Source: a virus
Lineage: Duplodnaviria > Heunggongvirae > Uroviricota > Caudoviricetes
Length of the DNA: 11,226 nucleotides
IMG/VR virus record: IMGVR_UViG_2563366822_000009
Direction: 5' to 3' (one strand)
Below are positions 1 to 11,226 of the stretch, in pieces; positions within the stretch are counted from its first letter, which is position 1, and every line of letters begins with the position of its first letter. Both the position numbers and the translations under genes were made by a program. A model generated the notes under the pieces. The model had not been told where the DNA came from and searched no databases. It was given only the letters and a program-made list of their open reading frames with translations.

Positions 1-147
1 CTCATCACGCAGTTGTTTGACCCATCTTGTCATTGTGGAAAGGCCAACATCCATAGCTTTGGCGGCATCTGCCACCGTGTAGTTCTGGTCAACAACCAGT
101 TGAGCGGATTCGCGTTTAAACTCTGCGCTGAAATTTCTTTTTTTCAT
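1..147 (-). CDS. IS911-like transposase OrfA, N-terminal 49 codons only (partial, truncated by window edge)
   Basis: ATG at 145-147 (complement); in-frame translation to the window edge gives the OrfA N-terminal sequence quoted above. Not listed in the ORF track because it runs off the window. Confidence 0.8.
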
Positions 148-183
148 TGGAGCACCTGTGTTGTTCTGAGGTGAGCATATCAC

Positions 184-219
184 CTCTGTTCAGGTGGCCA
201 AATTCAGTGTGCCACTTCA
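184..219 (-). repeat. Terminal inverted repeat (IRL) of the IS element
   Basis: Reverse complement of 184-219 reads TGAAGTGGCACACTGAATTTGGCCACCTGAACAGAG, lying between the IS terminus and the orfA start as expected for an IS3-family IRL. Confidence 0.6.
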
Positions 220-786
220 AACAGCCACTAAATAGTTGTGCATAGAGAACGACTGGAAAAGGCCGTAGGAACTTACAAATCTCAATTCACGGTAGAGTAT
301 GATATGGGTATTCAATATAAATACAGCCCTCAAAGGTTTAAATATGAACGGAAGTGTTAAAAACAATCTATCGTCAAAAAAGTACAAGCTAAAAGAAAAA
401 TTTTGAATTTGAATCGCGAGCTTTCTAATGGAAAGATCACTCAGGCTGATTATTGTCTATACAAAAAACTGTTTGAAGACTACATTCAGGTATTAACATT
501 TCAACACACAAGAATTTTTGTGGAAAAAGATTTAATAGAACTATCAAATCATCGAAGTGGAGTATTCATTACAACTCAGCATGATACATTAGTAAATAGA
601 CTTGACAAAATTGATTATGAAATTGACAGATTAAAAAACTGTTTAAATAAAAAAATTATCGATTACACAAAATTCACATCCCTATATTAGGATTTTCTAA
701 GAGTACGACACCGTCACATTTAAATATTATTTGTAGAGGTAAAATGACAGCCTGACGGCGGTATTTCATTGCGAAATGCTATTTAA

Positions 787-807
787 AAGACCGCATTGAG
801 CGGTCTT
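787..807 (-). terminator. Candidate Rho-independent terminator downstream of the 484-aa gene
   Basis: Perfect 8-bp stem AAGACCGC (787-794) / GCGGTCTT (800-807) with 5-nt loop. On the minus-strand RNA the stem is followed by UUAAAU, giving a short U run. It lies about 40 bp past the stop codon at 843-845. Confidence 0.4.
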
Positions 808-842
808 ATGTATCTCACAACATATTACAGAATGACTTTAAA

Positions 843-2297
843 CTATTGTTTTAATAACATTTCAAAATCCTCATTCCAGTGCGTGTTTTGTGAAATACGG
901 GTATCAATTTCATCAAGCAGCATATCATGAGAAAGTATGCTTAAAGGGTCATTCCCATTTTTACCAAAACGCATCGTAGTTTCTGCTATTTCCCAATCTT
1001 CTGCGCTGATTGATGGCTGTATTGCATGGCAGTAGATAGCCTTCACATCCTTTTCATGACAGTCAAAATTATTGATGCTTTCTGCAATTTTACGAGCTCT
1101 TTCAATTTCGACAACTGGACCATGTAAAGTTTCATATGATATATGCACAATTGTAGGGGTATTATCTGGAACCTGTCGTACCACTTTGCTTAAGTGCGTT
1201 TTAATATCTTTTGCTTTTTTATTAATCGATTCCTCTGCTATACATTCCCAACGAGCACAGTAACCAGAGTGTATTCCAGTGCAAAAAATGTTAAGTATAT
1301 CAACACCGTCGTCCGGACCTACTCGTACAAGTCCTTTTGGGGCACAAAGATGAGTGTAATTTTCGCTGCTGCTAAAACTTCCGGCCAACAACGAAACCAT
1401 CTGTGGAGAGTTCCATTTAACCATGTATTTATCAAAATGCTCATTGATATTTTTCATATCTATTCTATTAATCAGTATTATAATTTCATCATTTTCTATT
1501 CTCAGTGACTTTCTCGTCGAGATATTAGACTTTATTTCATTGAAGATTTTTGCTAAAATATATTCATCTGTATCTTTTACTTCAACCTTGAAAAGCACGT
1601 CTAAAAATATGTTTTGTCTAGACTGAGTTAGAATAGGTACTAAATTGAGCCATCTTTGCCTCCATTCTCGACGCTCATTTTCAGAATATTCAGTCACTTT
1701 AGATAAACGCTTACATTCCACAAAAAAGCTTTCTTCACCTTTAGTAACTTTTAAATCAGGAGTTTTATTTAATGCTGTTTCTGGAATAAATTCTACTCTA
1801 TAACCATTGCGCGCATACATAATCGCAACAACTAATTCAAACAATGTTGAATCAGGTTGATTTATTTTACCGTTAAGAAATTCCGAAAGTTTTTCATCAA
1901 TCCCAACAATTTTTTTTGCAAGCTCAATATGTCTTCCAACAGCCGCAAAAAAGGGAAATACTCGGGCTGATTGCGCTAACTCGCTAACTAAAGGCCGTTC
2001 ATGTAAGCATTCTACAAGAAAAAGATACCATGCAACCCAATCCTCATGAAATGCCACCCTATTTTTTGGCTCTTCCATACTCTTCATTGCTTGGTCAAAA
2101 TTCTTATAGGTGTTATCTTCCTGTTCTCTGAAGTACTTGACTACATTTTTTTTGCGAGTCTCCCAAGTATCCTTTTCCAGATAAGATAAAAACCAGTCCA
2201 ATGCAATTTTCGTATGATGATGCCAGGGACTGGTATCCGTTGCTGCAAAAATCTCTTGTAGTTCTTTTGAATATTCCAATGTCTGTGTGTTAGCCAT
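843..2297 (-). CDS. Hypothetical protein, 484 aa, in A+T-rich cargo island; PD-(D/E)xK-like motif (E154, D181, E194-C-K196); function unknown
   Basis: Long uninterrupted ORF in A+T-rich DNA. ATG at 2295-2297 is preceded by GAGG with 5-nt spacing; stop TAG at 843-845. Motif codons checked directly: D181 at 1755-1757, E194 at 1716-1718, K196 at 1710-1712. I do not recognise the family. Confidence 0.85.
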   Translation of the reverse strand: MANTQTLEYSKELQEIFAATDTSPWHHHTKIALDWFLSYLEKDTWETRKKNVVKYFREQEDNTYKNFDQAMKSMEEPKNRVAFHEDWVAWYLFLVECLHERPLVSELAQSARVFPFFAAVGRHIELAKKIVGIDEKLSEFLNGKINQPDSTLFELVVAIMYARNGYRVEFIPETALNKTPDLKVTKGEESFFVECKRLSKVTEYSENERREWRQRWLNLVPILTQSRQNIFLDVLFKVEVKDTDEYILAKIFNEIKSNISTRKSLRIENDEIIILINRIDMKNINEHFDKYMVKWNSPQMVSLLAGSFSSSENYTHLCAPKGLVRVGPDDGVDILNIFCTGIHSGYCARWECIAEESINKKAKDIKTHLSKVVRQVPDNTPTIVHISYETLHGPVVEIERARKIAESINNFDCHEKDVKAIYCHAIQPSISAEDWEIAETTMRFGKNGNDPLSILSHDMLLDEIDTRISQNTHWNEDFEMLLKQ

Positions 2298-2668
2298 TTT
2301 GACCTCATCATTGTTAATTTATGAGATTTTACAACTTATAATGCATCTTCCAGATCGAGCCTCCAAGTAAGAAATCAGGCTAAATCAGACAGATATGTAA
2401 TATATCCCTAGTCAATTAGGCAGTCCACCCATAAATCCTAACAGTACGAAAATGGTTGGAACGTTATCCTAGGTTACTGCTCATCGTTTCCTTATGACCT
2501 CAATATATAAATATCCCAGCTCTTGCGGTTCGATTGTATGATTGACAGTCCGCTCCTGGCACAAAGCGGACAACCACGCCAGATCTACCCTGTGCCATGA
2601 AAAATGAGAATGTCAATTCACTCCTGAACTAATGCTTTTTAATCTAGTAACGTCTAAAATACCTAACA

Positions 2669-3070
2669 TTATCCCTGATAAAATGCCAGTATGCGCTGCA
2701 TAACTTCACTCATCCGGCACTCGCGACAGATTATGTTTAGGCGACTGTCGTAGCGACGTATTTCTCCATCAGGTAACGACCAGATAAGGTCCGGATCAAC
2801 CACAGCTGTTTTCTTCACCTTTGCCCTCGATAGTTTTTTGCGGGCGTTTTGCCAGTCCTTACGCGCCTGTTCAGACGGGAATAACCCGTAGCCGGAGTTG
2901 TATACATCGCCACTGGCTACCAGCTCTCTGGCAAGAACGCTCATCAGATATCTAGTCGCACCTGTTTTAGCTTCCAGTTGCCGTAACGTCTCACGACCAC
3001 TCTGGCGCACGAGTTCCACCACCTGCCCTTTAATTTTTTCCCGCTCTTCTTGTGTAAAAACTTTTGCCAC
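2669..3070 (-). CDS. Hypothetical protein, 133 aa, GTG start; possible winged-helix DNA-binding protein
   Basis: ORF with GTG at 3068-3070 preceded by AAGGGGGA; no in-frame ATG until codon 43. The segment TLRQLEAKTGATRYLMSVLARELVASG resembles a helix-turn-helix. Sits where lambda P would be but is too small to be a helicase loader. Confidence 0.55.
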   Translation of the reverse strand: MAKVFTQEEREKIKGQVVELVRQSGRETLRQLEAKTGATRYLMSVLARELVASGDVYNSGYGLFPSEQARKDWQNARKKLSRAKVKKTAVVDPDLIWSLPDGEIRRYDSRLNIICRECRMSEVMQRILAFYQG

Positions 3071-3110
3071 AAGTCCCCCTTAAAATTACCTCATGACCTG
3101 AAATCAAAAC

Positions 3111-4076
3111 TTATCCTCTGAAACCAGGCGGAATTTCTGTATCCGGTTCAGAAATATGATTCACACAACGCTGTACAGGTGAACGTCCCAGGCGGATGAC
3201 CAGTTCGTCCCATTTTTCGCGGAGTTTTGACGGGCTCATGATGTTTTTTACCCAGAATGGATCCCGCTGTACCCGACCAAACATTTCGCAAATTTGTCTG
3301 TGGCTTCTGCCATCCAGCATCCGCATTGTGCGCACGTCATTGGCCCAGGCTGTCCAGTTAGGCTCTTTTGGTCGCATGATCTCTCCATCGTCGCTGGCAG
3401 CCTGTTCGTAAAGGTTCACGATCCGCCCCCAAATCCACTGCGCACACGCCAAATCCTCCCTGCTACCCCACTGGCGTTTTTTCACACTAAACACAACCGC
3501 GTCGGGGTTCCGAGTTAAAAAATCCTGTTCAGTCGTCTGCGGGTCCGGTTGCGAAGCTTCCGGACGAAAAGTGTTTTTATTCTCTGTAGTAATCTCTGTT
3601 GTATTCTCTGTAAGATCATCAGGCCATTTTGACCCGATGACATTGGGTCGTTTTGAACCAATGGAGCGTTTCATTTTGACCTCTTCCATCGTGTCATTTT
3701 GACCTGATGGAGCGGCGCATTTTGAACCGATGGATTCGTTCAATTTGCCACCATCTAAAAGCTCGCTCCCATAGTTGATCGTGTAGAAATTGGTCATATC
3801 GCGCTTTGATTTATTGAGCTTTTCACAACGCAAAAGCCCCAGCGTTTTCAGACTTGCAAACGCGCGCTTTAACGTTGACTCTGACCAGAATGGGAACTGT
3901 TCCAGCCATTGTTCCGTTGTGTTATAAATCCAGCGAACACCATCACATTCCATACCGGAGTTGGTATCTCTCAACCAGTAGTGCAGTTGTTGCAAAACAA
4001 TGGCTTCGTTTAAGCCGATTTTCATTGCCAGCTGCGTGTTTATAACCAGTGGGCGTTCAGCAAAAAGAAGACTCAT
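3111..4076 (-). CDS. Phage replication initiator, lambda O-like, with the replication origin embedded in the coding sequence
   Basis: Start taken at the ATG at 4074-4076; the track ORF begins at a TTG at 4128-4130. The N-terminal region has a winged-helix-like segment (WSESTLKRAFASLKTLGLL). A central low-complexity linker (SIGSK repeats, TENTTEITTEN) coincides with the DNA iterons and A+T-rich repeats. Position is immediately downstream of the cro-like and cII-position genes, as in lambdoid phages. Confidence 0.7.
   Translation of the reverse strand: MSLLFAERPLVINTQLAMKIGLNEAIVLQQLHYWLRDTNSGMECDGVRWIYNTTEQWLEQFPFWSESTLKRAFASLKTLGLLRCEKLNKSKRDMTNFYTINYGSELLDGGKLNESIGSKCAAPSGQNDTMEEVKMKRSIGSKRPNVIGSKWPDDLTENTTEITTENKNTFRPEASQPDPQTTEQDFLTRNPDAVVFSVKKRQWGSREDLACAQWIWGRIVNLYEQAASDDGEIMRPKEPNWTAWANDVRTMRMLDGRSHRQICEMFGRVQRDPFWVKNIMSPSKLREKWDELVIRLGRSPVQRCVNHISEPDTEIPPGFRG
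3578..3613. repeat. A+T-rich tract with three tandem 12-bp repeats (TCTCTGT core) flanking the iterons; candidate DNA-unwinding element
   Basis: TCTCTGT occurs at 3581-3587, 3593-3599 and 3605-3611, preceded by GAAAAGTGTTTTTAT. It lies on the side of the iterons that is downstream in gene orientation, matching the ori-lambda layout of iterons followed by an AT-rich region. Confidence 0.5.
3625..3755. repeat. Origin-of-replication iterons: five to six tandem ~23-bp direct repeats, core CATTTTGACC-GATGGAGCG
   Basis: Repeat units begin at 3625, 3649, 3672, 3695, 3718 and a degenerate sixth at 3741; the TTTTGA core recurs at 3627, 3651, 3674, 3697, 3720. Periodicity is 23-24 bp, inside the O-like CDS. 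Confidence 0.7.
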
Positions 4077-4578
4077 AATTCCATCCAGCTTTTTGTTGGT
4101 ATTGCTGTCGATACGCAAGCTTGAAAGCAATTGCTTTTTCTATAAGTTCGTCAGTTTCACGATCTACAACGGCAGGATCTGCAAAAAGCAGTCCAGATTC
4201 CACCACATCGCCATATTCTTTATTTAACCCGGCGATCATGTACGTAATACTTTTTCCATCACTGATCTCACGATACAACCTGAAATCACTAATCCGGATA
4301 GCCTCCATAATTGCAGGCACTAGCGCTGTGAACTTTTCACGCTTATCCCTGGTGTCGATAGCCTTCCAGCGTTCGAATATCTTCACTCGATTAACGCTAA
4401 GCGCTCGCTGATCAACCGCGCCACCTTCATATGTGACACGCTGAACATCGATGTTCGGGCGCTCTTTCAAAGCCCAGAATGCTTCAGTGATTAATATCGT
4501 CGCCTGCTCCTGTGTCATTCCTGGTCGACATATCCAGGCATCCAGAGCCTCACGAGCCTGTTCAGGAGTGATTTTCAT
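4057..4578 (-). CDS. Hypothetical protein, 173 aa, between the cro-like gene and the replication initiator (cII-position gene; possibly a YdaT-like regulator)
   Basis: ATG at 4576-4578 overlaps the dicC-like stop (4562-4564) by 17 nt, and its stop (4057-4059) overlaps the O-like start by 20 nt, indicating one tightly packed operon. I do not recognise the family with confidence. Confidence 0.7.
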   Translation of the reverse strand: MKITPEQAREALDAWICRPGMTQEQATILITEAFWALKERPNIDVQRVTYEGGAVDQRALSVNRVKIFERWKAIDTRDKREKFTALVPAIMEAIRISDFRLYREISDGKSITYMIAGLNKEYGDVVESGLLFADPAVVDRETDELIEKAIAFKLAYRQQYQQKAGWNYESSFC

Positions 4579-4789
4579 TGTTCAACCGCCCCGCCCGCTT
4601 CGTCTTACGATATTCGTCATAAACTTTGGGATCATACTGAAGCTCCCCGCCAGATGCCTCCTGTAGACGCATCGCGCGACCTTCAGGAACCAGTATCCCC
4701 CAAGCAGCAACACTTGCCAGTCTCACTCCTGCGGCATTGGCAAGCTTTGTTTTGCTGCCAAAAAAAGTAATTGCGTCAACTTTAAGCAT
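4562..4789 (-). CDS. dicC: Cro-type repressor, DicC-like (75 aa)
   Basis: Translation MLKVDAITFFGSKTKLANAAGVRLASVAAWGILVPEGRAMRLQEASGGELQYDPKVYDEY... resembles DicC of the Qin prophage as I remember it. ATG at 4787-4789 is preceded by AGGGGG with 5-nt spacing; the track start is the TTG one codon upstream. Divergent from the dicA-like gene. Confidence 0.8.
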   Translation of the reverse strand: MLKVDAITFFGSKTKLANAAGVRLASVAAWGILVPEGRAMRLQEASGGELQYDPKVYDEYRKTKRAGRLNNENHS

Positions 4790-4802
4790 CAAAGCCCCCT
4801 CT

Positions 4803-4820
4803 TGTTAGATTTTTCTAACA
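4803..4820. promoter_or_regulatory. Operator palindrome TGTTAGA-TTTT-TCTAACA in the dicC/dicA divergent intergenic region
   Basis: Perfect 7-bp inverted arms with 4-bp spacer; the same arms recur at 5314-5331 and degenerately at 5349-5366. Confidence 0.55.
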
Positions 4821-4847
4821 TTATTGTGCGCGGGATACCTAAGTCAA
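4819..4847 (-). promoter_or_regulatory. Putative sigma70 promoter for the dicC-like operon (minus strand)
   Basis: On the minus strand: -35 TTGACT (4842-4847), 16-bp spacer, -10 AATAAT (4820-4825). The predicted transcription start overlaps the operator palindrome. Confidence 0.35.
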
Positions 4848-4869
4848 GAAAAATTAGAATTACCTAACT

Positions 4870-5277
4870 ATGGATACAAGAACCCTAGGCCAGCGAGTTC
4901 TGGCGCGACGAAAAGAATTACGCTTAACACAACGAGAAGCTGCGCGCCTCGCTGGAGTTGCTCACGTCACAATTTCACAATGGGAAAGAGACGAAACCCA
5001 GCCAGTCGGAAAACGATTGTTTGCTTTAGCGGATGCTCTGAAGTGCTCACCTACATGGCTAATGTTTGGTGACGAAGACAAGGCACCAGTGCCTGCACAA
5101 GAACTTCATGTGGAAACAGAGCTAACTCCCAACCACAAAGAATTGATCGAATTATTCGATGCTCTTCCATCTTCCGAGCAGGAAGCCTTGCTGTCTGAAA
5201 TGCGCGCAAGAGTAGAAAACTTCAACAAACTCTTCGAAGAAATGCTTAAAGCGCGTAAAAATAAATCAATAAAATAA
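4870..5277 (+). CDS. dicA: XRE-family HTH repressor, DicA-like (CI-type immunity repressor), 135 aa
   Basis: N-terminal HTH (LTQREAARLAGVAHVTISQWERDETQP) and the C-terminal portion (CSPTWLMFGDEDK...EMRARVENFNKLFEEMLKARK) resemble DicA as I remember it; same length as DicA. ATG at 4870, stop TAA at 5275-5277. Confidence 0.85.
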   Translation: MDTRTLGQRVLARRKELRLTQREAARLAGVAHVTISQWERDETQPVGKRLFALADALKCSPTWLMFGDEDKAPVPAQELHVETELTPNHKELIELFDALPSSEQEALLSEMRARVENFNKLFEEMLKARKNKSIK

Positions 5278-5310
5278 CATTCTTTTCAAGTGATTAGTTG
5301 CGCCCACTCT

Positions 5311-5334
5311 TTTTGTTAGACCAATCTAACAAAA
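5311..5334. promoter_or_regulatory. Operator palindrome TTTTGTTAGA-CCAA-TCTAACAAAA (perfect 10-bp arms)
   Basis: Seen directly at 5311-5334; the core is identical to the 4803-4820 operator. Lies immediately upstream of a candidate -35 element. Confidence 0.55.
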
Positions 5335-5338
5335 ACAC

Positions 5339-5367
5339 TTGCCTCTCATGTTAGGTTATTCTAAATT
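5339..5367 (+). promoter_or_regulatory. Putative promoter of the downstream plus-strand operon (dicB-operon promoter equivalent), overlapped by a third degenerate operator
   Basis: -35 TTGCCT (5339-5344), 17-bp spacer, -10 TAAATT (5362-5367). The degenerate operator TGTTAGG-TTAT-TCTAAAT (5349-5366) covers the spacer and -10. Confidence 0.4.
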
Positions 5368-5444
5368 ACTTTCTATCAAGACACCGCACGGTGTTCTCAG
5401 CAAGCAGTTCCGCTACCCCGGCGTTAAGGGGAAATGAGGTCAGC

Positions 5445-5597
5445 ATGGATACTATCGATCTTGGCAACAGCGAATCTCTGGTATGTGGCGTGTTCCCCAA
5501 CCAAGACGGTACGTTCACCGCGATGACATATACCAAAAGCAAAACGTTTAAAACCGAATCTGGCGCGCGTTGCTGGTTAGCCAGAAACACTGACTGA
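5445..5597 (+). CDS. ydfA: Small protein, 50 aa, YdfA-like (first gene of the dicB-type operon)
   Basis: ATG at 5445-5447 preceded by GAGG with 5-nt spacing; the track ORF starts at an upstream GTG without a ribosome-binding site. Size and position directly downstream of dicA match ydfA of Qin. Stop TGA 5595-5597. Confidence 0.55.
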   Translation: MDTIDLGNSESLVCGVFPNQDGTFTAMTYTKSKTFKTESGARCWLARNTD

Positions 5598-5608
5598 TGA
5601 GGCTGACG

Positions 5609-5974
5609 ATGGAATTTAAAGATTTACCGTCTGATGTACAGAAAACAGCAGCTCATACATTGCATTCTGTGCTGCGAGAAATCGGGAAAGATATTGCAAG
5701 CGAGCCAGCAAAAGATCTGGCCCGGAAAATCAAGACCGCTTTCGTTGAGCTTTATAATGTTGGCACTGACTCTGAAACTGTCGAGACCAAGACCGTAAGT
5801 TCACCAATATTCTCACTTGAGCCAGGCGTATTATCAGGTGAAATATGCACCGAGATTTCCAGCGAACTGCTTCCGGTAATACGAGAAGCAATTTGCCGTC
5901 GCGGTTTGGATGGAAGTTACGATCATGACGTCCTGCAAGTTCTCAGGACAATGGTGACTTCACTGGGGATTTGA
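5609..5974 (+). CDS. Hypothetical protein, 121 aa (dicB-operon-region protein, YdfB/YdfC position)
   Basis: ATG at 5609 preceded by GAGG (5599-5602) with 6-nt spacing. The track start at 5597 overlaps the upstream stop as TGATG but has no ribosome-binding site. Stop TGA 5972-5974. Confidence 0.6.
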   Translation: MEFKDLPSDVQKTAAHTLHSVLREIGKDIASEPAKDLARKIKTAFVELYNVGTDSETVETKTVSSPIFSLEPGVLSGEICTEISSELLPVIREAICRRGLDGSYDHDVLQVLRTMVTSLGI

Positions 5975-6143
5975 TCCCTGCGTCCTCTAACCTTTTGATA
6001 TAGCGGTCCTCCAAGAAGCGGTAAATTTTGTCGAAATCATCTTTCCCCTCTGGTTTATTCAGAGGATTACAGGACCCGTAAGTAGCGGCATACATTTCAA
6101 CCGTTTTATCAAAAATATAAGAGACAAATTCTTCTTTAGTCAT
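5943..6143 (-). CDS. Hypothetical small protein, 66 aa, convergent with and antisense to the dicB-type operon
   Basis: ATG at 6141-6143 (complement) preceded by AAGGA with 7-nt spacing. Its 3' end overlaps the 3' end of the 121-aa gene by 32 bp (5943-5974). Locally more A+T-rich than its neighbours by eye. Confidence 0.5.
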   Translation of the reverse strand: MTKEEFVSYIFDKTVEMYAATYGSCNPLNKPEGKDDFDKIYRFLEDRYIKRLEDAGIKSPVKSPLS

Positions 6144-6222
6144 ATAGATTTCCTTCTTGGTTATTCGGGATAAGAAGGATACCACCTCGCCTGACGTGGT
6201 TAAAAGCAGGCACACAACACGA

Positions 6223-6284
6223 AAGCGCACGGCGAAGTTCGTCTCACTGTACGGTGTCGTTAAATTTAATTCGACCGTGCGCTT
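6223..6284. repeat. Perfect 10-bp inverted repeat AAGCGCACGG / CCGTGCGCTT separated by 42 nt, followed by GGTTG-TGG-CAACC palindrome (6287-6299)
   Basis: Seen directly; located in the non-coding stretch between the 66-aa gene start and the DicF-like sRNA. Confidence 0.5.
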
Positions 6285-6418
6285 CCGGTTGTGGCAACCC
6301 GCGAAATGGCGCGGCGGTAAGTATGGCGGGGTTATTCCTTCCCCGTTGAGGACACCGAGTTGTCAGGTTGACCATACGCTTAAGTGACAACCCCGCTGCA
6401 ACGCCCTCTGTTATCAAT

Positions 6419-6476
6419 TTTCTGGTGACGTTTGGCGGTATCAGTTTTACTCCGTGACTGCTCTGCCGCCGTTTTT
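6419..6476 (+). ncRNA. dicF: DicF-like small RNA (ftsZ-targeting antisense sRNA of Qin-type prophages) with intrinsic terminator
   Basis: Sequence TTTCTGGTGACGTTTGGCGGTATCAGTTTTACTCCGTGACTGCTCTGCCGCC followed by GTTTTT matches my memory of the roughly 53-nt DicF RNA. GGCGG (6434-6438) / CCGCC (6466-6470) stem followed by a T5 run. Lies about 175 bp upstream of dicB. Confidence 0.6.
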
Positions 6477-6645
6477 AAAGTGAATTTTGTGATGCGGTGA
6501 ATGCGGCTAAGCACACGCGGAACAGTTAAAACCAAAAACAGTGTTATGGGTGGATTCTCTGTATCCGGCGTTAATTGTTAACTGGTTAACGTCACCTGGA
6601 GGCACCAGGCACTGCATCACAAAATTCATTGTTGAGGACGCGATA

Positions 6646-6834
6646 ATGAAAACGTTATTACCAAACGTTAATACGTCTGAAGGTTGTTTTGAAATTGGTG
6701 TCACTATCAGTAACCCTGTATTTACTGAAGATGCCATTAACAAGAGAAAACAAGAACGGGAGCTATTAAATAAAATATGCATTGTTTCAATGCTGGCTCG
6801 TTTACGTCTGATGCCAAAAGGATGTGCACAATGA
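6646..6834 (+). CDS. dicB: Cell-division inhibitor DicB, 62 aa
   Basis: Translation MKTLLPNVNTSEGCFEIGVTISNPVFTEDAINKRKQERELLNKICIVSMLARLRLMPKGCAQ matches my memory of DicB. ATG at 6646 preceded by GAGGA with 7-nt spacing; the track ORF begins further upstream at an unsupported start. Confidence 0.8.
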   Translation: MKTLLPNVNTSEGCFEIGVTISNPVFTEDAINKRKQERELLNKICIVSMLARLRLMPKGCAQ

Positions 6835-7022
6835 ATTCAGCATTTGCGCTTGTTCTGACAGTTTTTCTTGTTTCCGGAGAGCCAGTTGATATTGCAGTCA
6901 GTGTTCACAGGACAATGCAGGAGTGTATGACTGCAGCAACCGAACAGAAAATTCCCGGTAACTGTTACCCGGTCGATAAAGTTATTCACCAGGATAATAT
7001 CGAAATCCCGGCAGGTCTTTAA
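6831..7022 (+). CDS. ydfD: YdfD-like small protein, 63 aa, with hydrophobic N-terminus
   Basis: ATG 6831-6833 overlaps the dicB stop TGA 6832-6834 (ATGA). The N-terminus MNSAFALVLTVFLVSG is hydrophobic. Position after dicB matches ydfD of Qin. Confidence 0.7.
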   Translation: MNSAFALVLTVFLVSGEPVDIAVSVHRTMQECMTAATEQKIPGNCYPVDKVIHQDNIEIPAGL

Positions 7023-7115
7023 AACAGTTCCGTAATAAATATCCGGTTTCATTCTTATATGCCAGCAATGGCAGGGATTTGTTCATCCTTAAATCTGTCA
7101 TGAGGTTAAAACAAA

Positions 7116-9587
7116 ATGAGTAAAGTCTTTATTTGCGCCGCTATTCCTGACGAACTGGCAACAAGGGAAGAAGGCGCTGTGGCTGTAGCCACAGCCATTG
7201 AAGCTGGCGACGAACGCCGTGCTCGAGCAAAATTTCACTGGCAGTTCCTGGAACATTATCCGGCTGCTCAGGACTGCGCTTATAAATTTATTGTCTGCGA
7301 GGATAAACCTGGCATACCCCGCCCTGCCCTCGATTCATGGGATGCTGAATATATGCAGGAAAACCGCTGGGATGAGGAGTCTGCTTCTTTTGTCCCGGTT
7401 GAGACTGAATCCGATCCGATGAACGTCACTTTTGACAAGCTGGCCCCTGAAGTACAGAACGCTGTCATGGTTAAGTTCGACACATGTGAAAACATCACCG
7501 TTGATATGGTTATTAGCGCACAGGAATTGTTGCAGGAAGACATGGCAACATTCGACGGACATATCGTTGAAGCGTTGATGAAAATGCCAGAAGTTAACGC
7601 CATGTATCCGGAGCTTAAGTTGCACGCCATTGGGTGGGTTAAGCATAAATGTATTCCTGGTGCTAAATGGCCCGAAATTCAGGCAGAGATGCGCATCTGG
7701 AAAAAACGTCGCGAAGGTGAACGCAAGGAAACCGGAAAATACACGTCTGTTGTTGATCTCGCCCGCGCCAGAGCCAATCAACAGTACACTGAAAATTCAA
7801 CAGGAAAAATCAGCCCGGTCATTGCTGCCATTCATCGCGAATACAAGCAGACATGGAAAACACTGGATGACGAACTGGCCTACGCTCTCTGGCCTGGTGA
7901 TGTGGATGCCGGAAACATTGACGGCAGCATCCATCGCTGGGCAAAAAAAGAAGTTATCGACAACGACCGCGAAGACTGGAAGCGTATCTCGGCATCAATG
8001 CGCAAACAGCCTGATGCCCTTCGCTACGACCGCCAAACTATTTTTGGCCTTGTCCGTGAGCGTCCGATCGACATTCACAAAGATCCCGTAGCACTGAACA
8101 AATATATCTGCGAATACCTGACGACAAAGGGCGTGTTTGAGAATGAAGAAACAGACCTGGGCACTGTTGATGTTCTCCAGTCATCAGAAACACAAACTGA
8201 TGCAGTGGAAACTGAGGTATCTGATATCCCAAAAAATGAAACCGCGCCGGAAGCTGAACCATCTGTAGAGCGTGAGGGGCCGTTCTATTTCCTCTTCGCA
8301 GGTAAGGACGGAGAAAAATACGGTCGCGCAAACAAACTTTCTGGTCTGGATAAGGCACTGGCTGCTGGCGCCACTGAAATCACAAAAGAAGAATATTTTG
8401 CCCGAAAAAATGGCACATACACGGGCTTACCGCAAAATGTTGATACCGCTGAAAAGACCGAACAACCAGAGCCGATAAAAGTTACCGCTGACGAAGTAAA
8501 CAAAATTATGCAGGCAGCCAATATCAGCCAGCCTGACGCCGATAAGTTGCTTGCTGCATCACGTGGTGAATTTGTTGAAGGGATTAGTGCCCCGAATGAT
8601 CCGAAATGGGTTAAGGGGATCCAGACCCGCGATTCTATGAACCAGAACCAGCATGAATCGGAACGGAACTACCAAAAAGCGGAACAAAACAGCCCAAATG
8701 CGTTACAAAACGAGCCAGAAACGAAACAGCCTGAACCAATGGCGCAACAGGAAGTGGAAAAAGTCTGCACCGCCTGCGGTCAGACCGGCGGCGGCAACTG
8801 CCCTGATTGTGGCGCGGTGATGGGCGACGCAACATACCAAGAAACATTCGATGAAGAGTATCAGGTTGAAGTTCAGGAAGATGATCCGGAGGAAATGGAA
8901 GGCGCTGAACATCCACACAAGGAGAACACTGGCGGCAATCAGCATCACAATAGCGATAATGAAACTGGCGAGACGGCAGATCACTCAATTAAGGTGAACG
9001 GTCATCACGAAATCACATCCACCAGCAGGACGTGTGACCATCTAATGATCGACCTTGAAACCATGGGAAAAAATCCTGATGCCCCGATCATCTCAATAGG
9101 TGCAATATTTTTCGATCCGCAAACCGGAGATATGGGACCGGAATTTAGTAAGACTATCGATCTGGAAACTGCTGGCGGAGTCATTGATCGGGACACCATT
9201 AAATGGTGGCTTAAGCAATCACGCGAAGCGCAATCTGCCATTATGACCGATGAAATCCCGTTAGATGATGCACTGTTACAATTGCGGGAATTTATCGACG
9301 AAAACTCCGGTGAATTTTTTGTTCAGGTTTGGGGAAATGGAGCCAACTTCGACAACACGATTTTGCGCCGTTCATACGAACGGCAGGGGATCCCCTGCCC
9401 GTGGCGTTACTACAACGATCGCGATGTACGCACAATCGTTGAGCTGGGGAAAGCCATAGATTTCGATGCCAGAACGGCTATTCCATTCGAAGGTGAGCGC
9501 CATAATGCACTTGATGACGCCCGTTACCAGGCAAAATACGTTTCAGTTATCTGGCAAAAACTGATCCCGAGTCAGGCTGATTCTTAA
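7116..9587 (+). CDS. Large prophage protein, 823 aa, with C-terminal DnaQ-like DEDDh 3'-5' exonuclease domain; resembles the family annotated exodeoxyribonuclease VIII / YdfE-like in E. coli prophages
   Basis: ATG at 7116, stop TAA 9585-9587. C-terminal motifs seen directly: Exo I MIDLETMG (D646, E648; codon 9051), Exo [10 protein letters not shown] (D746; codon 9351), Exo III HNALDDA (H796, D801; codon 9501). Acidic low-complexity linker with C-x2-C-x7-C-x2-C zinc ribbon at 8766-8810. Segment [31 protein letters not shown] resembles a RecE segment as I recall it. Confidence 0.9.
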
Positions 9588-9598
9588 TGTTCAACTGT

Positions 9599-9630
9599 CG
9601 CCGGTTGTGACTGGTATTCTGCAACCGGCG
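9599..9630. other. Hairpin (9-bp perfect stem CGCCGGTTG / CAACCGGCG, 14-nt loop) between the exonuclease gene and xis
   Basis: Seen directly. No T-run follows on either strand, so it is not a canonical intrinsic terminator. Confidence 0.4.
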
Positions 9631-9659
9631 CTCGTCTGATGTAAGAGATAAAGAAATCG

Positions 9660-9911
9660 ATGAGCGAAGTAATCATGATTGTCTCTCCCGGCAAATGGGT
9701 ATCCGAAGAGCAGTTAATTGCGCTGAAAGGAATAAAAAAAGGTACGTTAAAAAAGGCCCGGGAAAAATCGTTTATGGAAGGAAGGGAATATAAGCATGTC
9801 GCTCATGACGGTATGCCATGGGATAACAGTCCATGCTTTTACAACCTGGAAGAAATTGATCGCTGGATTGAGCGCCAGGCATCAGCGAGACCAAGACGTC
9901 ATCTTACTTGA
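9660..9911 (+). CDS. xis: Excisionase, lambda Xis-like (83 aa; alternative start at 9675)
   Basis: Small basic protein immediately upstream of and co-oriented with the integrase. The central GREY segment resembles lambda Xis (KDGREYLFHESA). Stop TGA 9909-9911. Confidence 0.7.
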   Translation: MSEVIMIVSPGKWVSEEQLIALKGIKKGTLKKAREKSFMEGREYKHVAHDGMPWDNSPCFYNLEEIDRWIERQASARPRRHLT

Positions 9912-9945
9912 CTAAAAGCCACACTAACTAATGAGAGAAGTTGAA

Positions 9946-11226
9946 ATGAAATATCCGACAGGCGTGGAAAACCATGGAGGGAAATTACGTATCTGGTTTG
10001 TTTATAAAGGCGTAAGAGTCAGGGAAAATCTGGGGGTTCCTGACACAGCAAAAAACAGGCGCGTTGCAGGTGAACTACGCGCCTCTGTTTGTTACGCAAT
10101 AAAAACTGGTGTTTTCGACTATGCAAAACAGTTTCCCTCCTCACGCAATCTGGAAAAATTTGGTGAGGCCCGACAAGATTTAACCATAAAAGAACTGGCT
10201 GAAAAATTTCTGGCACTGAAAGAAACTGAAGTCGCCAAAACATCACTCAACACATACCGTGCCGTCATCAAAAATATCCTGAGCATAATCGGTGAAAAAA
10301 ATCTTGCCTCATCGATTAATAAAGAAAAATTACTGGAGGTTCGTAAAGAGCTACTGACTGGATACCAGATCCCTAAAAGTAACTATATTGTTACACAACC
10401 AGGGAGATCGGCTGTAACTGTAAATAATTACATGACAAATCTTAACGCCGTGTTCCAGTTTGGTGTTGATAACGGTTACCTGGCAGATAATCCGTTTAAG
10501 GGGATCTCGCCATTAAAGGAATCAAGAACCATTCCGGATCCTCTTTCGCGGGAGGAATTTATCCGTCTTATCGATGCGTGCAGAAATCAGCAAGCAAAAA
10601 ATTTATGGTGTGTTTCTGTTTATACTGGCGTTCGCCCTGGTGAGCTGTGTGCACTTGGATGGGAGGACATAGATCTGAAAAATGGAACAATGATGATCAG
10701 GAGAAATTTAGCAAAAGACCGTTTCACGGTACCAAAAACACAGGCGGGAACCAATCGGGTCATTCATCTTATTAAGCCAGCAATCGACGCTCTCCGGAGT
10801 CAGATGACATTAACGAGACTGAGCAAAGAGCATATCATTGATGTTCACCTCAGAGAGTATGGCAGAACAGAAAAACAAAAATGCACCTTTGTTTTTCAAC
10901 CTGAAGTGTCAGCGAGAGTAAAAAATTATGGTGACCATTTTACCGTTGACTCAATAAGGCAGATGTGGGACGCAGCGATAAAACGAGCCGGACTCCGCCA
11001 TCGAAAATCATATCAGTCGAGACATACTTATGCCTGCTGGTCGCTGACAGCTGGTGCTAACCCGGCATTTATAGCAAACCAGATGGGCCATGCAGATGCG
11101 CAAATGGTATTTCAGGTATACGGAAAATGGATGTCTGAAAACAATAATGCACAGGTAGCTTTGTTAAATACACAGTTAAGTGAGTTTGCCCCAACCATGC
11201 CCCATAACGAAGCAATGAAAAATTAA
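9946..11226 (+). CDS. int: Tyrosine-type site-specific integrase (phage integrase family), 426 aa from the ATG at 9946; track start 9931
   Basis: N-terminal arm-binding-like region (YPTGVENHGGKLRIWFVYKGVRVRENLG), then conserved catalytic-region elements: TGVRPGELCALGWEDID, SRHTYA, and C-terminal VFQVYGKWM with the candidate catalytic Tyr. ATG 9946 is preceded by GAGAGAAG with 5-nt spacing. Stop TAA 11224-11226 is the end of the window. Confidence 0.9.
   Translation: MKYPTGVENHGGKLRIWFVYKGVRVRENLGVPDTAKNRRVAGELRASVCYAIKTGVFDYAKQFPSSRNLEKFGEARQDLTIKELAEKFLALKETEVAKTSLNTYRAVIKNILSIIGEKNLASSINKEKLLEVRKELLTGYQIPKSNYIVTQPGRSAVTVNNYMTNLNAVFQFGVDNGYLADNPFKGISPLKESRTIPDPLSREEFIRLIDACRNQQAKNLWCVSVYTGVRPGELCALGWEDIDLKNGTMMIRRNLAKDRFTVPKTQAGTNRVIHLIKPAIDALRSQMTLTRLSKEHIIDVHLREYGRTEKQKCTFVFQPEVSARVKNYGDHFTVDSIRQMWDAAIKRAGLRHRKSYQSRHTYACWSLTAGANPAFIANQMGHADAQMVFQVYGKWMSENNNAQVALLNTQLSEFAPTMPHNEAMKN

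Follow-up and report, generated by a model that had tools for sequence, protein, structure and literature searches.

Background

The Mrr-type and other type IV enzymes (PF04471; AF1548, PDB 1Y88) are single polypeptides without a cognate methyltransferase, in which an alpha-beta-beta-beta-alpha-beta core with an E...D...ExK motif stands at the C-terminus and is accompanied by a winged-helix or SRA-type reader. Shedu (SduA) has its nuclease in a C-terminal DUF4263 domain. Other nucleases of related kind depend on partners: HamA of Hachiman needs the HamB helicase, NucC of CBASS and type III CRISPR systems needs a cyclic-oligonucleotide signal, and the CdiA-CT (EC869-type) PD-(D/E)xK DNases are domains of about 130 residues, delivered by contact-dependent growth inhibition and encoded with an adjacent immunity protein. 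Validated cargo of mobile-element hotspots includes P2 old, tin and Z/fun, PD-T7-1, PD-T7-5 and the P2/P4 systems (Rousset 2022, Vassallo 2022), and the moron concept of Hendrix and Juhala covers accessory genes placed between the backbone genes of lambdoid phages. The window analyzed here, i.e. the whole 11,226-nucleotide (11.2-kb) stretch of viral record IMGVR_UViG_2563366822_000009, is the early-region arm of a lambdoid, Qin-like prophage of Escherichia coli. Close to one of its ends is an A+T-rich cargo cassette with one gene for a 484-aa stand-alone protein of a nuclease family (Table 1), and this cassette and its protein are the subject of the present analysis.

The segment is best explained as cargo, a cassette exchanged horizontally through a hypervariable slot of the prophage. 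On sequence evidence its product represents a new family of a familiar kind, namely the stand-alone nuclease cargo of mobile-element hotspots, to which two domains of unrecognized fold have been added. With the Mrr-type enzymes it shares the predicted core, the single polypeptide and the lack of a cognate methyltransferase, and Mrr_cat is the sole recurrent Pfam signal in the family. It differs from them in that the nuclease lies mid-protein, in that there is no winged-helix or SRA-type reader, and in its two family-specific domains without known fold. The likeness to Shedu is limited to the generic core; domain order and flanking domains differ, and the protein has neither a PADLOC Shedu match nor a C-terminal DUF4263 domain. 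Unlike HamA and NucC, it has no partner gene across the 38 homologue loci surveyed below, and unlike the CdiA-CT DNases it comes with no delivery domain or immunity gene. Validated hotspot cargo occupies the same kind of locus, PD-T7-1 and PD-T7-5 being found in the very slot that holds the nuclease cassette elsewhere, but has no sequence relationship to the cassette protein. Deviant composition, a ribosome-binding site of its own, a downstream hairpin and polymorphism between backbone genes are shared with lambdoid morons; however, the slot is a recurrent exchange site with conserved palindromes rather than the site of a one-off insertion, and promoter and terminator are putative.

A predicted PD-(D/E)xK nuclease with two unassigned domains

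In a first-pass annotation, made from the letters of the window and the translations of its open reading frames, residues E154, D181 and E194-C-K196 were proposed to form a restriction-endonuclease-like core. These residues stand at the positions claimed and, together with E208, are invariant in 38 of 38 close and 36 of 36 distant homologues, down to 21% identity. An AlphaFold2 model built from the family alignment (pLDDT 88, pTM 0.88) sets them on the alpha-beta-beta-beta-alpha-beta core of the superfamily, and the superfamily motif, i.e. an acidic residue in helix 1, an aspartate opening strand 2 and (D/E)xK within strand 3, is conserved family-wide. The proposed fold is thus confirmed in a confident model, and the PD-(D/E)xK assignment is accepted on that basis; membership in the Pfam family Mrr_cat is not accepted. 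Against Mrr_cat (PF04471) the query scores 13.2 bits (E 0.1) and does not reach the gathering threshold of 21 bits. Sub-threshold Mrr_cat matches are present in 8 of 36 members, all at the motif region; the best of them (E 0.0025), like P0176 (17.9 bits) and the query itself, falls far short of a confident match. Two of the 36 match Hjc. When profiles of the whole family or of its nuclease domain were run against the PDB, the matches were all insignificant (Hjc, E 0.43; AF1548, E 0.61), and Foldseek comparison of the full-length model with the PDB gave nothing at E <= 1e-3.

The family is large. An indexed search returned 86 homologue clusters at 90% identity, and an exhaustive profile search returned 1,011 at 50% identity; almost all of these representatives are full-length (430-510 aa), and 235 fall below 1e-30. 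Hosts and carriers include E. coli, Klebsiella, Aeromonas, Vibrio, Bacteroidota, P2-like phages and conjugative plasmids. The sole family match of the cassette protein is PHROG 37220, for which no function is annotated. The best PADLOC matches, GajB (E 0.0024, 14.6 bits) and AbiEi (E 0.02), were rejected as spurious and partial. The searchable literature, queried by accession, PHROG identifier and keyword, neither describes the family nor mentions its accessions or its PHROG, the accessions are absent from the supplements of Rousset 2022, and the family is not among the new hotspot systems of a 2026 study (PMC13586616). The earlier view of the system as undescribed therefore stands, both for that literature and for Pfam, NCBIfam and PADLOC.

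The domain ahead of the core is all-helical in the secondary structure of the model. Its R48 never varies, W45 and D86 are kept in at least 90% of the distant set, and W90 and Y91 are invariant among close homologues only. Pfam and fold searches placed it in no recognized family or fold and found no solved structural relative. The alpha/beta domain that follows the core has invariant Q375 and H385 and nearly invariant E389, R400 and E439, and no structural relative was found for it in the same searches. The possibility that it is a second, degenerate PD-(D/E)xK copy was excluded by hhalign (probability 0.1%). A cysteine cluster at residues 330-360, which the first-pass annotation had pointed out and which might have bound Zn or an Fe-S centre, is ruled out, the cysteines not being conserved: distant homologues keep C339 in 3, C347 in 5 and C352 in 17 of 36 cases.

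The gene itself had been called the only convincing one of the island, and it is the sole open reading frame of the cassette with homologues and a coding signature. Relative to an orthologue whose gene is 92.6% identical at the nucleotide level, substitutions are distributed 23/20/64 over the three codon positions. The ribosome-binding site proposed for it is likewise present, as a GAGG core close to the start codon (Table 1).

An exchanged cassette in a Qin-like prophage

Positions 220-11226 of the window match E. coli strain EC93 at 99.9% identity, and homology to the uninterrupted EC93 prophage begins at window 220. The EC93 prophage adjoins rspB/ynfA, and beyond the cassette it runs into hokD, rem, ydfU, the lysis genes and the head genes. 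The G+C content of 220-2547 is 0.348, compared with at least 0.443 (mean 0.465) in equal-sized windows across 2548-11226, which bears out the A+T-rich shift noted at first reading; the gene alone has a G+C content of 0.359 and a third-position value (GC3) of 0.29. The end of the island had been placed too far to the right, at 2668. Comparison with prophages bearing other cargo sets the right edge of the cassette at 2547/2548, and 2548-2668 is conserved phage backbone. In EC93 (locus L001) the homology to prophages with other cargo ends at 11862 and restarts at 14329, which corresponds to window 2548. At the other end an insertion sequence (IS) of the IS3 family, whose N-terminal translation at 1-150 (minus strand) matches HTH_Tnp_1 (E 1e-8), has inserted 139 bp inside the cassette and cut off 139 bp of its hokD-side end, so the left end of the cassette is absent from the window.

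The cassette is carried by 11 of 5,426 complete E. coli genomes. The slot backbone just right of the cassette is present in 1,060 of these genomes, about a fifth, and only about 1% of the prophages possessing the slot have the cassette. In a related prophage of E. coli LB14b (L015) the slot is deleted along with the 3' part of the DUF977 gene; 261 bp remain between hokD and the shortened DUF977 gene, and both palindromes described below are gone.

The whole cassette, including its non-coding flanks, is also present on the Kosakonia pseudosacchari conjugative plasmid pBDA62-3 (L027 5721-8080), where it is 82-93% identical (protein 91%, non-coding flanks 82-90%). There it is surrounded by anti-restriction, DUF1380 and orphan methyltransferase genes and lies on the strand opposite to its neighbours. 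Members of the same >90% identity cluster are found in Pectobacterium and Yersinia as well, and from these and the Kosakonia copy it follows that transfer between genera and between replicons has been recent. Deviant composition, presence/absence and replacement at a fixed backbone position are the marks of a moron or hotspot cargo, and with the plasmid copy they uphold the suggestion that the segment was acquired separately.

Insertion sequences cluster around the cassette. Besides the IS3-family element of the window (junction 219/220), strain 201609 (L018) has IS2 about 170 bp upstream of the nuclease start codon, and strain JNE21-003 (L017) has, on the hokD side, an IS3 family transposase gene (end of the coding sequence at L017 1178) that precedes the cassette by a few hundred bp. 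In JNE21-003 the nuclease gene is broken into two open reading frames of 333 and 144 aa. This clustering could be a sign that expression is costly, or no more than a preference of the elements for A+T-rich targets.

The slot and its palindromes

The slot is delimited by hokD on one side and the DUF977/Ren-like gene on the other and comes immediately downstream of the replication genes. Alternative E. coli cargos at this site include DUF4209 (PADLOC candidate PDC-S39), HEPN, an Sll1717-type ATPase, an ATPase with a STAS-like protein, QueH, an alpha/beta hydrolase and small open reading frames; some variants encode the Doc toxin. In EC93 a 24-bp inverted repeat brackets the cassette. Its two copies are complementary at 22 of 24 positions, and each is itself palindromic with a 9-6-9 architecture. 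Four other cargo types have their junctions exactly at the edge of the right palindrome and two have them inside it, and the Kosakonia plasmid cassette retains the first 16 nt of this palindrome.

Searched for the outer arm of the right palindrome, viral contigs gave at least 120 loci, and among those listed there are at least 26 distinct cargo-side ends. At least 50 listed loci also have the left site, and these delimit at least 27 distinct cassettes, 993-6,724 bp long and nearly all with both palindromes complete. Cassette proteins from these contigs match PD-T7-1 (E 4e-157), a CBASS cyclase with 2TM effector, PD-T7-5 and AbiH, as well as GmrSD_N, AAA_13, RelA_SpoT and the PADLOC candidates PDC-S06, S15, S33 and S39. 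Genes for a BCCT transporter, a short-chain dehydrogenase, an MFS transporter and a LysR regulator are further contents of the large cassettes. The slot is therefore a true hotspot of diversity, defence-rich but not defence-exclusive.

Since at least 27 unrelated cargos share them, the palindromes are a property of the slot rather than of the nuclease gene. They could be recombination sites, operators or other protein-binding sites, or mere conserved borders of modules. Adjoining the right palindrome, R-T-T is seen in approximately 19 of 27 cassette ends. A promoter conserved at the inner edge of the right palindrome was considered and rejected, the pattern TTGNNN-N16-18-TANNNT fitting only 1 of 27 ends.

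Distribution and neighbourhoods of the homologues

Homologues are borne by 66 plasmids, 54 of them conjugative. A Pantoea P2-like prophage has a 73%-identical homologue flanked by gpA and the portal gene, and this gpA-portal (gpA-gpQ) interval is the old/tin hotspot of P2-like prophages (PMC9122126). Escherichia phage 899 has a 29%-identical homologue in the interval from the tail-fibre assembly gene to the sheath gene, described as the Z/fun hotspot (bioRxiv 10.1101/2024.10.15.618418). An Aeromonas homologue is found in a small integrase islet, one homologue stands beside a Hachiman system that has its own HamA, and an IncFII plasmid homologue occurs alongside Abi_2 and AAA_13. A Bacteroidota island has its homologue beside AbiH and a methyltransferase, and in Bacteroidota the family is found in phage-free chromosomal defence islands. 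The family is thus spread over the P2 hotspots, plasmids and chromosomal islands, and the outcome that would have spoken against an accessory role, confinement to one known phage module, is not what is seen.

On a Rhizobium leguminosarum plasmid (L026 4748-7368) a 29%-identical member, annotated as a transposase, lies 27 bp downstream of the gene for DNA phosphorothioation-associated DGQHR protein 1 and next to dndBCD. This gene pair is perhaps a phosphorothioate-linked restriction module of two genes in which the present nuclease family is employed.

Partner genes were sought at 38 loci from Gammaproteobacteria, Alphaproteobacteria, Bacteroidota and Verrucomicrobiota by clustering 288 neighbouring open reading frames within 4 kb. 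No neighbour family was found in common outside one syntenic Chryseobacterium/Epilithonimonas lineage, and no methyltransferase, antitoxin, helicase or ATPase travels with the nuclease gene, in agreement with the single-gene system first proposed. The big upstream genes in Bacteroidota were rejected as a common partner, being mutually unrelated. The commonest neighbours are OLD/Gabija/PARIS-type ATPases, at 5 of 34 loci, and integrases, at 4 loci. As the cassette itself lacks a methyltransferase, it is not of the type II restriction-modification kind; a solitary nuclease with no cognate methyltransferase is the arrangement of type IV systems.

Two recurrent arrangements were observed near the homologues. 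A 669-aa AAA ATPase is encoded just downstream of members on an Aeromonas plasmid and a Bacteroidota chromosome (L029 7129-11062; L171 8568-9809), and on the Aeromonas plasmid the ATPase is followed by a UvrD-type helicase in a Gabija/OLD-like order. A DUF4365 protein (167-184 aa) is paired with a protein of about 375 aa in the Pantoea P2-like hotspot and in a Vibrio fluvialis prophage (L020 4198-5825; L013 14970-16653), and this pair may be a separate two-gene candidate system.

Possible functions of the cassette protein

The cassette protein is probably a conflict or defence nuclease, directed against phages or other mobile DNA. The first-pass annotation had offered an anti-phage defence, abortive-infection or toxin gene, and what sustains such a role is context: defence systems share the slot, and homologues are present in both P2 hotspots and near genes of Hachiman, AbiH, Gabija-like and Dnd systems. 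A high prior for hotspot cargo is supported by a 2026 study (PMC13586616) in which 6 of 8 randomly chosen loci of unknown function from P4 satellite hotspots were protective.

A lysogen would make the protein from the cassette. The centre formed by E154, D181, E194, K196 and E208 would cut DNA in a metal-dependent manner, a chemistry suggested by the fold and the conservation. Because no methyltransferase, antitoxin or other partner is present, self-protection must be intrinsic to the protein. The N-terminal helical domain and the C-terminal domain, with its Q375, H385, E389, R400 and E439, would license cleavage only on DNA that has a feature the host lacks, for example a base modification of phage type or an intermediate of replication or recombination, by a logic like that of type IV restriction. 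The target would be incoming phages or other mobile DNA, and the beneficiary would be the lysogen or plasmid host. Licensing by a DNA feature is a tentative proposal. It is slightly preferred over a trigger by a phage protein because the non-catalytic domains hold strictly conserved polar residues and not fast-evolving surfaces.

Several points weigh against a defence nuclease of this kind. The nuclease call rests on remote similarity and predicted structure, and the 484-aa protein has no above-threshold model in Pfam (2025), NCBIfam (2026) or PADLOC-DB v2.0.0 (2023). The slot also carries clearly non-defence cargo (BCCT, dehydrogenase, MFS, LysR, QueH), so location alone is not proof of defence. 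The licensing step is speculative in that Pfam and fold searches of both flanking domains gave no modified-base reader (SRA, winged helix, DUF262/GmrSD_N) and no DNA-binding fold. The promoter and the terminator fit at consensus level only. Promoter-like sites are no commoner than in shuffled sequence (13 against 9.6 +/- 2.7). Of the likely terminator that accompanied the ribosome-binding site in the first-pass annotation, the hairpin stands and is stable (fold z-score -3.5), but its U run is short and a terminator scan made no call at 785-808; it is possibly a weak or bidirectional terminator.

An abortive-infection mechanism is nearly as likely as licensing by a DNA feature, and it too can be put forward only as a possibility of limited weight. 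Here the flanking domains would restrain the nuclease until a phage protein or another infection cue activates it, host and phage DNA would be degraded, and the cell would die before phage release. This would agree with a single gene that has no immunity partner at any of the 38 loci, with the resemblance of the core to the triggered effectors NucC, HamA, Can2 and SduA, and with the presence of AbiH, CBASS and Abi_2 among slot cargo and homologue neighbours. However, polar residues that stay invariant in non-catalytic domains down to 21% identity would be unusual for a protein that tracks fast-evolving phage proteins, and no sensor-type fold (STAND, SAVED, CARF or TPR) was found in the Pfam and fold searches. 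Sequence analysis does not separate abortive infection from direct restriction.

A broader version of the defence reading is rather unlikely. The protein would then be the founder of a new class of self-contained immune nucleases, its C-terminal domain being a new sensor or a second catalytic centre that discriminates foreign from host DNA without a partner, and it would be delivered, as one among dozens of cassettes, into a slot whose 9-6-9 palindromes are dedicated, integron-like exchange sites of a sort not described for lambdoid phages.

There is little likelihood that the protein is the toxin of an addiction or toxin-antitoxin module stabilizing the prophage or plasmid, with the convergent open reading frame at 403-690 or an antisense RNA as antitoxin. 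The slot does adjoin hokD and holds Doc in some variants, and the small convergent frame is open in both the E. coli and the Kosakonia copies, in the latter annotated as 118 aa. Yet substitutions in 403-690 are even over codon positions (19/17/25), without the bias of a coding sequence, and in E. coli the frame is shifted relative to the Kosakonia start, with a further shift in strain FDAARGOS_946, whereas the nuclease gene remains intact. No counterpart was found at the other homologue loci fetched up to that comparison, no neighbour is conserved across the 38 loci, and an Rfam scan of 1-3200 gave nothing credible, an antitoxin RNA included. With 484 aa and three conserved domains the protein is also far bigger than typical toxins. 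As judged from its substitution pattern, 403-690 is probably a decaying or non-coding remnant and not a partner gene.

Equally improbable is a nuclease for the element's own DNA metabolism, i.e. a structure-specific resolvase or recombination enzyme like Rap or RusA of the nin region, or one for host takeover or counter-defence. The position just downstream of the replication genes is where lambdoid phages hold recombination functions, and the Kosakonia copy lies among anti-restriction and orphan methyltransferase genes. Nevertheless, the gene is limited to about 1% of slot-bearing prophages and is elsewhere swapped for unrelated defence or accessory genes, members are also present in phage-free chromosomal defence islands of Bacteroidota, and the Kosakonia copy is oriented opposite to the surrounding anti-restriction genes.

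That the protein is a homing or mobility nuclease acting selfishly to spread its cassette is the most improbable reading of all: the cassette does shift with its non-coding flanks between prophage and plasmid, its ends abut palindromic sites, and homologues in Rhizobium and Agrobacterium are labelled transposase, but that label is without Pfam support, the palindromes flank at least 27 unrelated cargos, the insertion contexts of homologues (P2 hotspots, plasmids, islands) are mutually unrelated, and the cassette has no terminal inverted repeats of its own.

Other features of the window

The remaining genes of the window are those of a lambdoid early region (Table 1). The Cro-type regulator and a YdaT_toxin-family protein are encoded by overlapping genes (4057-4792, minus strand) immediately upstream of the replication gene, an arrangement comparable to the ydaS/ydaT pair of Rac. 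The 823-aa exonuclease, in the position of RecE, ends in an Rv2179c-like 3'-5' exoribonuclease (DEDD) domain (E 2e-67), and its long N-terminal part has no Pfam family match.

Table 1. Features of the window and, for the left palindrome, of the EC93 prophage. Positions refer to the 11,226-nucleotide window unless a locus is named.
Feature	Position	Strand	Remark
IS3-family end, N-terminus of orfA	1-219	-	boundary, not part of the system
A+T-rich cargo cassette	220-2547	-	2,328 bp of the full 2,466-bp cassette
Convergent 95-codon open reading frame	403-690	+	TTG start
Hairpin AAGACCGC-n5-GCGGTCTT, then UUAAAU	785-808	-	about 40 nt past the stop codon
Gene for 484-aa stand-alone nuclease-family protein (WP_032341362)	843-2297	-	
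C-terminal alpha/beta domain, aa 262-484	846-1514	-	
Predicted PD-(D/E)xK nuclease core, aa 148-236	1590-1856	-	
Codon of K196	1710-1712	-	core residue
Codon of E194	1716-1718	-	core residue
Codon of D181	1755-1757	-	core residue
Codon of E154	1836-1838	-	core residue
N-terminal all-helical domain, aa 1-145	1863-2297	-	model secondary structure
Shine-Dalgarno core GAGG	2303-2306	-	5 nt before ATG, read from the sequence
Right-hand 24-bp palindrome GTCCGCTCC-TGGCAC-AAAGCGGAC	2548-2571		phage backbone, DUF977 side, at the cassette junction
Left palindrome GTCCGCTTT-GAGCGA-GGAGCGGAC	EC93 L001 11840-11863		hokD side; lost from the window
DUF977/Ren-like protein	2669-3070	-	
339-aa replication protein			
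YdaT-family protein			
Cro-type regulator	4562-4792	-	
CI-type repressor	4870-5277		
823-aa exonuclease	7116-9587	+	RecE position
Excisionase	9660-9911		
Integrase	9931-11226		

Implications

If confirmed, the defence role would give a function to approximately 1,000 sequence clusters that are invisible to Pfam, NCBIfam and PADLOC. A nuclease protecting its host without methyltransferase, antitoxin or signalling partner would need to have the rule by which self and non-self are told apart in its two domains of unrecognized fold, and their study could reveal a new way of recognizing foreign DNA. The slot, which about a fifth of the complete E. coli genomes possess and which holds at least 27 cassettes between fixed palindromes, is a compact and easily mined source of further candidate systems and possibly a clue to the mechanism by which cargo is swapped.

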